A stretch of DNA of 52,806 bases, taken from Escherichia virus TH24. Of this stretch, positions 33,362 to 48,773 are shown piece after piece; positions within the stretch are counted from its first letter, which is position 1; each line of letters starts with the position of its first letter. Location of the stretch: the sequence record MT446398.1. One strand, written 5' to 3'. A program made the translations under genes and the position numbers. The notes under the pieces are model-generated. The model had not been told where the DNA came from and did not search any database. It saw nothing but the letters and a program-made list of their open reading frames with translations.

Positions 33362-33518
33362 GGATTGAATATTAAATACCTAATACTGACACTTACTATT
33401 AGCGTTGTTATACTTACGATTGTTGTAGGCTTTGCCAACCTGCTGCTATTACAAGCAGGAATATAAACTGGCGCGTTAAATTAACAAGGAGCATTCATTG
33501 AGTGTTCCTGATTAATTC

Positions 33519-33537
33519 AACATTAGTTGGATGTGAG
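33519..33537 (+). promoter_or_regulatory. Candidate phage-RNAP promoter (motif ACATTAGTTGGATGTGAGAG)
   Basis: Perfect motif copy ~75 nt upstream of the 33610 ORF. Confidence 0.4.
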
Positions 33538-33609: not shown

Positions 33610-33987
33610 ATGGCACAATATTCAGACGTAAACACTGGCATCATCGGTTCCAATGGCTTCAAGAAAGACCCAAAACATCCTGACGTTCGTGGACGTATTA
33701 ACGTTGACGGAGTCTGGTATTGGGTGTCCGGTTGGAACAAGCAAGCCAATGGTAATGAATTTACCTCGCTGGCCCTCACCATCATGACCCAAGAACAGGT
33801 CGATGAAATGATGCGTAAGCGTGAAGAGAAAGCTAAAGCCAAAGCTCAACCTCAAGCCGCTGCACAACAGCAACAGCAACGCCAGCAACCTGCTGCACAA
33901 CAGCAAGCACCTGTTCAGCAACAGACGCAGAACAGTAACTATAATCCGAACGAGCCGAAAGACTTCGACGACGACATTCCTTTCTAA
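33610..33987 (+). CDS. Small protein ending in the bacterial SSB C-terminal tip DFDDDIPF (SSB-tail mimic or minimal SSB)
   Basis: 125 aa; Gln/Ala/Pro-rich linker (QPQAAAQQQQQRQQPAAQQQAPVQQQ) then DFDDDIPF at the extreme C-terminus; N-terminal region is too short for a canonical OB fold. Confidence 0.6.
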   Translation: MAQYSDVNTGIIGSNGFKKDPKHPDVRGRINVDGVWYWVSGWNKQANGNEFTSLALTIMTQEQVDEMMRKREEKAKAKAQPQAAAQQQQQRQQPAAQQQAPVQQQTQNSNYNPNEPKDFDDDIPF

Positions 33988-34000
33988 TTGGAGATGCCCT

Positions 34001-34120
34001 ATGAAAATTTTATGTTTTATAGGGCTACATAATTGGGAAATTTCGCATGAAAACGATTATGTAACCTTTTGGGTGTGTAAGCACTGTTCAGCAATGCGTG
34101 AGGAATATCATGGCAACTAA
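34001..34120 (+). CDS. Small Cys/His-rich protein (39 aa)
   Basis: GGAGA RBS; MKILCFIGLHNWEISHENDYVTFWVCKHCSAMREEYHGN. Confidence 0.35.
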   Translation: MKILCFIGLHNWEISHENDYVTFWVCKHCSAMREEYHGN

Positions 34121-35015
34121 CGTTATTGAAATACCTGCCAATTTGGTCAAAACTGGCGACGTGGTAATTCATGAAGATAAAGAGTATCTGATTGGATATG
34201 TCTTTAGATTGGGTGTAGTTCAACTGCAATATTCTGGTGGATGTTTCAATTTTGAGTGGGACCAGGCAGTCAAAATCTTGGATAAACGTCCTACTACAGA
34301 CTCCTTTGCAAAACCGGGCGCAACAACACGCGCAGTATTGGCAAGCCAAGTTCGACCTGGAAACACCCTATCTTACGGAATCAAATTCTTTGAGATAAAG
34401 GAAGTTAAAGACCTTGGGGAAATTCCTGAAAGTGCGGTTCGCTTAATACATGAAACAGGCTACTTTGACTTTTCACTTAACCGTATAGTCCACATTGTTA
34501 ACGAGCCACCAGCTTTGGAAACTCCAACAGCAACATACAATACGCAGATAACACCGGTATTTCTTCCTTATGAGGAAGCAGTGAAACCATTCTCAGATGA
34601 AGAGGATGTTAAAGGCGCTGATGTAGAAGTTGGTGATGTTATTTGGTACAAAGGCAATTGGGCAACTGTTACAAATGTGTACAAGCACCCAAACTCACCA
34701 TACAATAAAGTCAATGTTGACTACGGCGACGTAAAAGGTTTGCAAGTACGTCTGGTATTAACTGGAACTTATTCGAGAAAGGTAAGAGCAGTAATGGAAA
34801 CTTTAAATATCCAAAATGCAATCGAAGCACAGCGTATTCTTCTGCAAAAGCTGGAGCAAATGCTAGACTTACAGCAACTTGCACCAACAGCAGATGGCAA
34901 GATTGCAATCGGCAACTGCAACATTCGCGTGGACAAGGCATCAATCGTTAAAGCCGCACGCGATGAAATGAAAGCTGCCGCAAGCAAATCAACAGAGCTT
35001 ATCAAGAAGCTGTAA
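34110..35015 (+). CDS. Hypothetical protein (301 aa)
   Basis: ATG 34110 with GAGGA RBS (track start 34098 is GTG). Confidence 0.55.
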   Translation: MATNVIEIPANLVKTGDVVIHEDKEYLIGYVFRLGVVQLQYSGGCFNFEWDQAVKILDKRPTTDSFAKPGATTRAVLASQVRPGNTLSYGIKFFEIKEVKDLGEIPESAVRLIHETGYFDFSLNRIVHIVNEPPALETPTATYNTQITPVFLPYEEAVKPFSDEEDVKGADVEVGDVIWYKGNWATVTNVYKHPNSPYNKVNVDYGDVKGLQVRLVLTGTYSRKVRAVMETLNIQNAIEAQRILLQKLEQMLDLQQLAPTADGKIAIGNCNIRVDKASIVKAARDEMKAAASKSTELIKKL

Positions 35016-35071
35016 TTAACAGAGGTCATTCCACTTCGAGTGGCCTCGATTAATTATTATTAGGAGGAATT

Positions 35072-47909: not shown

Positions 47910-48773
47910 ATGGCATTTGCTGCTCCTACTCTGGCCTCGAACAAGACTCCTTCTGCTGCACCATTACTGGAAGCGGGTGGTTATCCTGCTCGTGTCTGCC
48001 GTATTATCGACCTGGGCTTACAGCCAGGCTCTGCTAAATATCCAAACCCATCCCTGAAACTTCTGGTTACTTTCGAACTGCTCGACGAGTACATGAAAGA
48101 GGTTGATGGCAATGGTGCTATGGTCATGGTCCAAGACCCGGACGAAGATGACGGCGTAATGATGGCGAAGAATCTTGAAGACAAGCCGCGTTGGTTTGAC
48201 TTTGAGTTTACCTACAACGCTGACGGCTTCATGGGTGACAACTCCCACATCTACAAATTCGCTAAAGCGATTGATGCTCTGGAAGTTAAACAGAATCTGG
48301 AACAAAGTATCCAGGGCCACCCTGCTAAGAACCTGCCAGATTGGTTGGGCGAACCTCTGGTTGTTGGCATTGTCCAGTACACCAAACAGTCTGGCAAGAA
48401 CGCTGGTCAGGTTGCGAACAAGGTTGCTACCTTCTCCCCAATGAAGTCCAAAGAGAAGAAAGAAGCCAAAGCTCTGGTTAACCCGACTGTGTTCTTCGAC
48501 ATGTCTGAGCCAGACCTGGAAGTATTCAACAAACTGCCTGGTGGTGATTCTCCTTACGCAATCAAGAACCGCATTACTGGTGGTGTTGACTTCTACAAAA
48601 CCAAACTGTCTACCCTGCTGGGCGGTAAACCTGCTGATGATTCTGTTCCGAATCAGGCTTCTGATGAAGAAGTTGATGCAGCAATGAAAGCTGAACTGGA
48701 AGCTCAAGCTGCTGCAAAAGCACAGCGTGAAGCGGAAGGTGGTGCTGCTGGCGGTACTGGAATGCCGTTCTAA
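47910..48773 (+). CDS. Putative ssDNA-binding protein (T7 gp2.5-like architecture)
   Basis: 287 aa, host-optimal codons, acidic C-terminal tail ending in Phe (DEEVDAAMKAELEAQ...GTGMPF), located in the replication module. Confidence 0.4.
   Translation: MAFAAPTLASNKTPSAAPLLEAGGYPARVCRIIDLGLQPGSAKYPNPSLKLLVTFELLDEYMKEVDGNGAMVMVQDPDEDDGVMMAKNLEDKPRWFDFEFTYNADGFMGDNSHIYKFAKAIDALEVKQNLEQSIQGHPAKNLPDWLGEPLVVGIVQYTKQSGKNAGQVANKVATFSPMKSKEKKEAKALVNPTVFFDMSEPDLEVFNKLPGGDSPYAIKNRITGGVDFYKTKLSTLLGGKPADDSVPNQASDEEVDAAMKAELEAQAAAKAQREAEGGAAGGTGMPF

Follow-up and report, generated by a model that had tools for sequence, protein, structure and literature searches.

[quoted passage not shown] A close comparator for the locus described here is E. 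coli SSB (PDB 1EQQ, 4MZ9), a protein of 178 aa with the C-terminus ...SNEPPMDFDDDIPF, in which a core for DNA binding and oligomerisation is joined through a low-complexity disordered linker to an acidic tip. The 125-aa product of the ORF at 33610-33987 in Escherichia virus TH24, which we refer to as a mini-SSB, follows the same three-part plan, with a core of 58 aa that is predicted to form a four-stranded meander, whereas the bacterial SSB core has about 115 aa and forms a five-stranded OB barrel, and there is no sequence, profile or fold match between the two cores. The linker also differs in composition, being rich in Q, A and P in the mini-SSB and in G, Q and P in E. coli SSB, and the mini-SSB can be described as an SSB architecture on a different core.

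T7 and TH24 are both virulent phages with their own single-subunit RNA polymerase, Pol A polymerase and primase-helicase. The T7 gp2.5 protein (PF21265; DUF2815-like) shares with the mini-SSB an acidic C-terminal tail that ends in Phe, but it is a 232-aa protein with an OB-like core and a phage-specific tail, in contrast to the host-copied tail of the mini-SSB. Kong and Richardson, as cited in PMC5928155, reportedly found in 1998 that the gp2.5 tail contacts the phage polymerase and helicase. Temperate phages keep ssb beside recombination genes (ERF, Rad52-like, YqaJ). The HK620 SSB (HkaK, a DUF669 protein of 195 aa) and the mini-SSB family are both non-canonical phage SSBs, proposed as such in the case of the mini-SSB, and both are encoded beside single-strand annealing proteins, which for the mini-SSB family are ERF or Rad52-like; the mini-SSB N-domain lacks a DUF669 signal, and the HK620 tail merely resembles the host tip, whereas that of the mini-SSB is identical to it. 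The C-terminal hexapeptide of the HK620 SSB, NDYPPF, is needed to stimulate and load its annealing protein partner Sak4 (PMC5928155), and this loading by the last six residues provides a reason for ssb being kept beside annealing genes.

The locus and its host-type C-terminus

The window, the whole 52,806-nt stretch of DNA that was analysed (sequence record MT446398.1), is the complete genome of a Chaseviridae (phiEcoM-GJ1-like) coliphage and is about 86-93% identical to the phiEcoM-GJ1-like coliphages ST32, MLP1 and SA91KD (Chaseviridae, genus Carltongylesvirus). It contains a T7-like replication set of thymidylate synthase, primase-helicase, Pol A, 5'-3' exonuclease, HNH endonuclease and ligase, where HNH endonuclease is the PHROG label of a gene whose SA91KD counterpart is annotated as endonuclease VII. 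The mini-SSB gene is located about 9.6 kb upstream of the replication genes, and it is the first of a three-gene unit behind its own phage-RNAP promoter. The features discussed below are as follows.

33518-33537, plus strand: phage-RNAP promoter of the phiEcoM-GJ1 type, CAACATTAGTTGGATGTGAG
33610-33987, plus strand: mini-SSB-like CDS, ATG start, 125 aa, stop codon included; phrog_7364 match at E 1.3e-42
33610-33783, plus strand: N-domain, residues 1-58, predicted four-stranded antiparallel beta-sheet, proposed oligomerisation and ssDNA-binding core
33784-33846, plus strand: amphipathic helix (MTQEQVDEMMRKR...), residues 59-79, in one family sub-branch only
33847-33960, plus strand: disordered Q/A/P-rich linker, residues 80-117, by composition and pLDDT below 50
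33961-33984, plus strand: DFDDDIPF tip, residues 118-125, identical to the E. coli SSB C-terminal tip
34001-34120, plus strand: 39-aa ORF downstream in the mini-SSB unit, a hypothetical protein in SA91KD, with a C-x-x-C motif (MKILCFIGLHNWEISHENDYVTFWVCKHCSAMREEYHGN)
34110-35015, plus strand: 301-aa ORF, last of the unit, with phrog_20048 of unknown function as its sole match (residues 162-301)
35022-35047, plus strand: intrinsic terminator-like hairpin closing the unit, with a terminator annotated at the equivalent place in SA91KD
47910-48773, plus strand: 287-aa protein encoded between the DNA polymerase and 5'-3' exonuclease genes

The promoter lies 73 nt upstream of the ORF; when up to 3 mismatches are allowed, its 20-mer is matched 2 times in the window, where 0 are expected. 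The consensus AAACATTAGTTGGATGTGAA is found on the plus strand at six sites, each with 2-3 mismatches (29907, 30757, 33518, 38046, 38186 and 40153), which fall within the early and middle region, and the minus strand of the window has none. The initial annotation of this DNA had noted a promoter motif just upstream of the gene, and this is borne out by its identity with the promoter annotated as phiEcoM-GJ1-like in SA91KD. Its description of the product as a small early protein needs to be narrowed, since the promoter is of the phage-RNAP type: the gene is an early-region or middle gene, but not an early gene of the host RNAP. The 301-aa protein at the end of the unit could be a divergent recombination partner, because relatives of the mini-SSB adjoin annealing proteins.

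The full translation of the ORF is MAQYSDVNTGIIGSNGFKKDPKHPDVRGRINVDGVWYWVSGWNKQANGNEFTSLALTIMTQEQVDEMMRKREEKAKAKAQPQAAAQQQQQRQQPAAQQQAPVQQQTQNSNYNPNEPKDFDDDIPF, and its C-terminal end reads ...NEPKDFDDDIPF*. The last eight residues, DFDDDIPF, are identical at 8 of 8 positions to E. coli SSB residues 171-178, as is evident from the end of the 1EQQ and 4MZ9 sequence given above, and the linker that precedes them contains 16 Q, 6 A and 5 P among its 38 residues and is predicted to be disordered, with pLDDT below 50 at residues 89-112 of the full-length model. Both the identity of the tip and the SSB-like, Gln/Ala/Pro-rich character of the linker had been put forward at the outset, and both hold. 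A disordered low-complexity linker and an acidic tip ending in I/L-P-F, as in a canonical bacterial SSB, are thereby present. Linker length and sequence differ between homologues. Conservation across the 32 aligned Chaseviridae homologues falls on residues 1-75 and on the tip, with a drifting linker between them; the tip is retained in 32 of 32, with D120, I123, P124 and F125 invariant. Judged by this conservation, the match to the E. coli tip is not a matter of chance, since the tip is kept in all of these homologues and in most of the best distant relatives. We also infer that the tip is functional, because it is strictly conserved and because a host-type sequence is found in unrelated phage lineages. 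When the linker and tail region was searched at the DNA level against E. coli genomes, using a BLAST low-complexity filter that may have hidden part of the query, there was no match, and there is therefore no sign of a recent transfer from the 3' end of the host ssb gene.

The N-domain and its relatives

A domain-only AlphaFold (AF2) model built from 60 diverse sequences has a pLDDT of 92.3 and four antiparallel strands, at residues 9-14, 26-32, 35-46 and 49-58. The full-length model adds a helix at residues 61-79 with a pLDDT of about 71-79, and the remainder is disordered; in the alignment, the M-T-x-E-Q-V motif of this helix is present in one branch of the family and absent from the other. 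The N-domain is characterised by the motif N-x-G...N...K...H-P-D-x-x-G...G-x-x-Y-W-x-S-G-W-x-K...F-x-S-L, which is matched by the ORF at 33610-33987 together with the variable linker and the acidic tail ending in an aromatic residue. The 60-sequence alignment shows no variation at G10, N15, G28, G34 and W42, and in a set of 102 sequences G28 and W42 alone are at 100%, with G10, N15 and G34 at 97-99% (one deviant each at G10, N15 and P24, and three at G34); by residue class, Y37, W38, F51, K18 and K44 are 88-100% conserved in the larger set. A median net charge of +2 makes the N-domain mildly basic, against an acidic median of -2 for the remainder of the protein.

No significant similarity was found between the N-domain and known nucleic-acid-binding folds. 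The PF00436 and TIGR00621 models did not detect an OB-fold core in the 125-aa protein, hhalign of the N-domain was negative against both the E. coli SSB OB domain and the PC4 C-terminal domain, and comparison with the beta4-alpha fold of ssDNA-binding PC4/Whirly proteins, among them the PC4-like protein of phage T5 (PDB 4BG7), gave no significant structural or profile similarity. Pfam and PDB-sequence searches with the protein returned nothing relevant, and Pfam, PDB-sequence and NCBIfam searches with the protein and family profiles returned tail or low-complexity matches only, besides a motif in the Shiga toxin 2 B subunit. Apparently, then, the N-domain core is not recognisable as an OB fold. 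The initial annotation had come to a non-OB core from the observation that the N-terminal part, at about 70 aa, is too short for a canonical OB fold; that conclusion stands, but the size argument is insufficient, since cold-shock domains and Shiga toxin B subunits are OB folds of about 70 aa and small size cannot by itself exclude an OB fold. The match to the Shiga toxin 2 B subunit, itself an OB fold of 70 aa, pairs the family motif inveGveYwlSgWnk (positions 31-46 of the A4 profile) with VKVDGKEYWTSRWN (PDB 1R4P chain B, residues 21-36) at E 0.1; this match covers 16 residues of a beta-hairpin and was judged insignificant and too short.

The only Pfam family to give any signal is DUF736 (PF05284), which 13 of 102 relatives match, with a best E of 2.7e-4 and all below the Pfam threshold; the DUF736 model did not match the window protein itself. 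A Foldseek search of viral models (BFVD) returned only family members and one DUF736 phage protein, the latter at E 0.078 and probability 0.97. This suggests a distant relationship of the mini-SSB family to DUF736, not membership. DUF736 belongs to the gene backbone of the ICEMlSymR7A-type conjugative elements of Mesorhizobium and has no known function (PMC8627217), and both it and the mini-SSB family are found on mobile elements that handle ssDNA.

The 125-aa protein has 51 close homologues, all phiEcoM-GJ1-like (Chaseviridae) in size and layout, some of which are encoded on contigs of ~53 kb or by named phages. An exhaustive HMMER search with an N-domain profile, counted as cluster representatives at 50% identity, gave 2,130 matches at E <= 1e-3 and 117 at E <= 1e-10, and the family profile matches the ORF at 33610-33987 with E 7e-29. 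Most relatives are 60-150 aa long and are built as an N-domain, a low-complexity linker and an acidic tail. The mini-SSB layout is the hallmark of a very large family, with members in phages and prophages, to which phrog_7364 and phrog_18154 belong. Among the best 148 relatives, 87 tails fit acidic-x-[ILVM]-P-[FWY], another 14 end in P-[FWY] and 12 have an acidic stretch with a hydrophobic end; about 80% share the layout with an acidic tail that terminates in an aromatic or hydrophobic residue, and a DDDIPF tail is present in 29. The last 13-14 residues of E. coli SSB, NEPPMDFDDDIPF, are common to homologues in Erwinia, Pantoea, Salmonella and Vibrio phages. In about 20 of the best 150 relatives (about 13%) the N-domain is doubled ahead of a single tail, as in the annotated 'SSB' of Vibrio phages VP2, VP5, phiVC8 and J2, and these tandem members resemble the two-OB SSBs of the Deinococcus-Thermus group, in which each SSB carries two OB domains. 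One profile match differs from all of these: P0053, of 1158 aa, gives 21 tandem partial N-domain matches within highly repetitive sequence (...HRGTDTHHGYSRRQTRHTPGYWYSSWLQQTSDTSYTG...) and is probably a translated DNA repeat or assembly artefact and not a relative.

Some members carry residues beyond the IPF tip (P0004, P0008 and P0020; loci L003, L012, L020 and L021; phage matches H106-H131), for example ...DIPFAPIGLQEGRRYLHCI, ...IPFAPE[FW]R and ...VPFAPMASGRGFLSL, and because of these extra residues the carboxylate of the terminal Phe is not free in such relatives. The APIGL...H-x-I extension also closes proteins of phi92-like phages and OB-fold SSBs annotated in Vibrio and lambdoid phages. 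As this extension is common to many phage proteins, it suggests that the C-terminal end may be a shared, exchangeable module.

Homologues of the ORF at 33610-33987 are labelled 'single-stranded DNA-binding protein' in related records. The label seems to have been derived from the C-terminus, because the NCBIfam SSB models align only residues 40-125, mostly linker and tail, with 22-25 bits against cutoffs of 54-260, and the database 'SSB' labels therefore probably rest on tail and linker similarity only. A literature search found no characterisation of the mini-SSB family, with no ssDNA binding, oligomeric state or partner reported for the members found, and no Pfam or NCBIfam model for the core and no solved structure were found. 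The SSB label is thus already in the databases, and the non-OB core appears to be undescribed.

Gene neighbourhoods and the 47910 protein

Bacterial genomes were scanned with a profile from a 10-sequence subgroup of the family, giving 33 loci, mostly from Proteobacteria and in prophage-like regions. The family gene is directly downstream of ERF at two loci (L008, L012), of a Rad52-like gene at two (L020, L021) and of a YqaJ exonuclease gene at two (L007, L023), and at other bacterial loci it adjoins RusA or a P2 GPA replication protein. The commonest families among the 150 ORFs that neighbour it at 18 loci are ERF (five), YqaJ (four), Rad52 (three) and integrase (three), RusA occurs twice, and no canonical SSB (PF00436) was listed. 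In virulent phages the neighbour is DNA polymerase I. The gene order in Salmonella phage PMBT28 is helicase, Pol I, the family gene (L039, 6001-6342) and PurZ, and it is the same in Acinetobacter phage Barton (L040, 6001-6324), while in Vibrio phage J2 the family gene (L041, 9001-9477) is followed by Pol I, primase and PurZ; the tails are NEPPMDFDDDIPF in PMBT28 and J2 and EPLDDDLPF in Barton. In the 2-aminoadenine (Z-genome) phages PMBT28, VP2/phiVC8 and Barton, the family gene adjoins DNA polymerase I (DpoZ), near PurZ; in VP2, J2 and phiVC8 its product carries two tandem domains and one tail. In the complete PMBT28 genome the family member next to dpoZ is the only SSB-like gene: no other SSB is annotated there, and none of the ORFs resembles gp2.5, the E. 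coli SSB OB domain or a member of the 47910 family. Across these genomes, the family genes take the place that an SSB gene would have in phage recombination and replication modules.

The initial annotation had also proposed a separate gp2.5-like SSB at 47910, for which no sequence support was obtained. No window ORF in any frame matched the E. coli SSB OB domain or a T7 gp2.5 profile, and a 20-sequence gp2.5 profile run with hmmsearch against all window ORFs had a best E of 0.35, with an unrelated ORF, and E 6.4 for the ORF at 33610-33987. The 287-aa protein at 47910-48773 has a globular region of about 230 aa followed by an acidic low-complexity tail ending in MPF, and its relatives end in PF, PY, PW or W, so that only the acidic, aromatic-ended tail is gp2.5-like and the likeness is one of layout; hhalign gave probabilities of 0.13% against T7 gp2.5 and 0.26% against the HK620 DUF669 SSB. 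Pfam, PDB and profile searches with the 47910 protein were negative, and one member of its family has a weak DUF669 match (E 0.0046). Its best match is the NCBIfam model NF046043, 'phage replication initiation protein, NGO0469 family', at E 2.3e-16 and 59.9 bits, which is below the cutoff of 75. The protein is also found in phages that are not Chaseviridae, for example Pseudomonas phage O4 and Citrobacter phage CVT22, and in further Vibrio and Aeromonas phages. It could be the replisome SSB of this phage, in which case the mini-SSB may be specialised for recombination, repair or the recruitment of host factors.

A proposed mini-SSB and its alternatives

The gene is, in our judgement, fairly likely to encode the ssDNA-binding protein of the phage, a functional but non-canonical mini-SSB that uses the host SSB tip. 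The beta-domain would oligomerise, and the existence of natural tandem two-domain versions suggests that it is at least dimeric. It would bind ssDNA through the conserved aromatic residues Y37, W38, W42 and F51 and the basic residues K18, R27/R29 and K44, and the linker and acidic tip would then present a host-type SSB C-terminal peptide (SSB-Ct) on phage-coated ssDNA. Through this display, phage-coated DNA could recruit host SSB partners (Pol III chi, PriA, RecO/RecQ/ExoI and Ung) or, alternatively, those proteins of phage replication and annealing that recognise this peptide. Host SSB would then face competition for its partners as a consequence of such a mechanism, not as a separate one. 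In favour of the mini-SSB reading are the SSB-type linker and tip, the large family that keeps an acidic tail, its place among recombination and replication genes, the failure to match any alternative SSB in TH24 or PMBT28, host-type tails in unrelated phage lineages, the basic N-domain with its acidic remainder, the HK620 precedent and, indirectly, the PMBT28 co-expression result given below; weighing against it are an N-domain that resembles no known nucleic-acid-binding fold, the 47910 protein with its gp2.5-style tail, and relatives whose terminal Phe is not free.

One alternative is an adaptor, in which the beta-domain binds a protein or a DNA structure (the phage annealing protein, the polymerase, the helicase, host SSB itself, or dsDNA or forks) and the tail bridges to the host SSB interactome without any general coating of ssDNA. 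The very small size of the domain fits this, as does the tight apposition of the gene to ERF, Rad52-like, YqaJ or DNA polymerase I genes, whose stop codons it often overlaps, and the distant, sub-threshold link to DUF736, itself a backbone gene of conjugative elements (PMC8627217), points the same way. However, the neighbours are of unrelated types (ERF, Rad52, YqaJ, Pol I, P2 GPA and RusA) while the N-domain is unchanged, so that a common ligand such as ssDNA fits better than a specific protein partner, and in TH24 the gene has none of those neighbours. We regard the adaptor as unlikely.

The initial annotation had left the choice between a decoy and an unusual minimal SSB, and it is the minimal SSB that is favoured, because the family holds the SSB position, next to annealing proteins in prophages and to DNA polymerase I in virulent phages; the family gene is also the sole SSB-like gene in PMBT28, and nothing found here speaks specifically for the decoy. 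As a decoy or competitor, the N-domain would oligomerise or anchor the protein without coating ssDNA, and many host-identical tips would soak up host partners (ExoI, RecQ, PriA, RecO, Ung and chi), with the effect of disabling host repair, replication restart or an SSB-dependent defence. Identity with the host over 8 residues of the tip, and over 13-14 in relatives, would suit such a role, as would an N-domain without similarity to known DNA-binding folds, the position of the gene among small early-region genes outside the replication module of this phage, and the fact that a second protein, encoded between the polymerase and exonuclease genes, has an acidic tail like that of gp2.5. Yet that second protein has no sequence similarity to gp2.5 or the DUF669 SSB, and across lineages the gene takes the place of ssb within replication and recombination modules and does not lie in anti-defence or host-takeover islands, in PMBT28 with no other detectable SSB. 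The conservation of the N-domain, with invariant or near-invariant aromatic and basic residues across a family of 2,130 clusters, also exceeds what a mere scaffold seems to need, and the tandem-domain variants, having one tail for two domains, display half as many tips per domain, which would be odd for a decoy; this role is rather improbable. A conventional but divergent or truncated OB-fold tetrameric SSB, for which the GenBank and PHROG label 'SSB' and the weak NCBIfam SSB model matches speak, and likewise a chance or spurious ORF, are very improbable.

The broader form of the mini-SSB reading is held more tentatively and is, to our mind, nearly evenly balanced between being right and wrong: the family may be a novel structural class of phage and prophage SSB, in which a four-stranded core of about 58 residues, distantly related to DUF736 and not an OB fold, is joined to a host-type linker and tip and takes over the host SSB hub, with the C-terminal region acting as an exchangeable cassette whose tail modules (including 'IPF-APIGL...') are common to canonical phage SSBs. 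If true, the coating of ssDNA would have a new solution, in the form of a widespread SSB family whose core is different and much smaller, and this core of about 58 aa would rank among the smallest known domains that bind ssDNA. The family would lend itself to testing how far the linker and tip are portable as a module, and a tip identical to the host's should give it direct access to about 15-20 host SSB partners, with a bearing on phage takeover of host replication and repair, on the portability of recombineering, where the annealing protein and the SSB tail must match, and on defence systems that sense phage SSBs. It would also correct the annotation habit of labelling genes 'SSB' by tail similarity alone.

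A practical use may lie in a compact, host-matched SSB for engineering, since the homologue from PMBT28 seems to have been put to empirical use already in raising the incorporation of 2-aminoadenine. When the PMBT28 'helicase-dpoZ-ssb' genes were co-expressed with the dZ genes in E. coli, plasmid dZ incorporation rose from about 40% to about 50%, in an experiment that combined the helicase with ssb and in which 'ssb' was given without an accession (PMC12944874; bioRxiv 10.1101/2025.10.22.683976); from the gene order of PMBT28, we infer that this 'ssb' is the mini-SSB family member.
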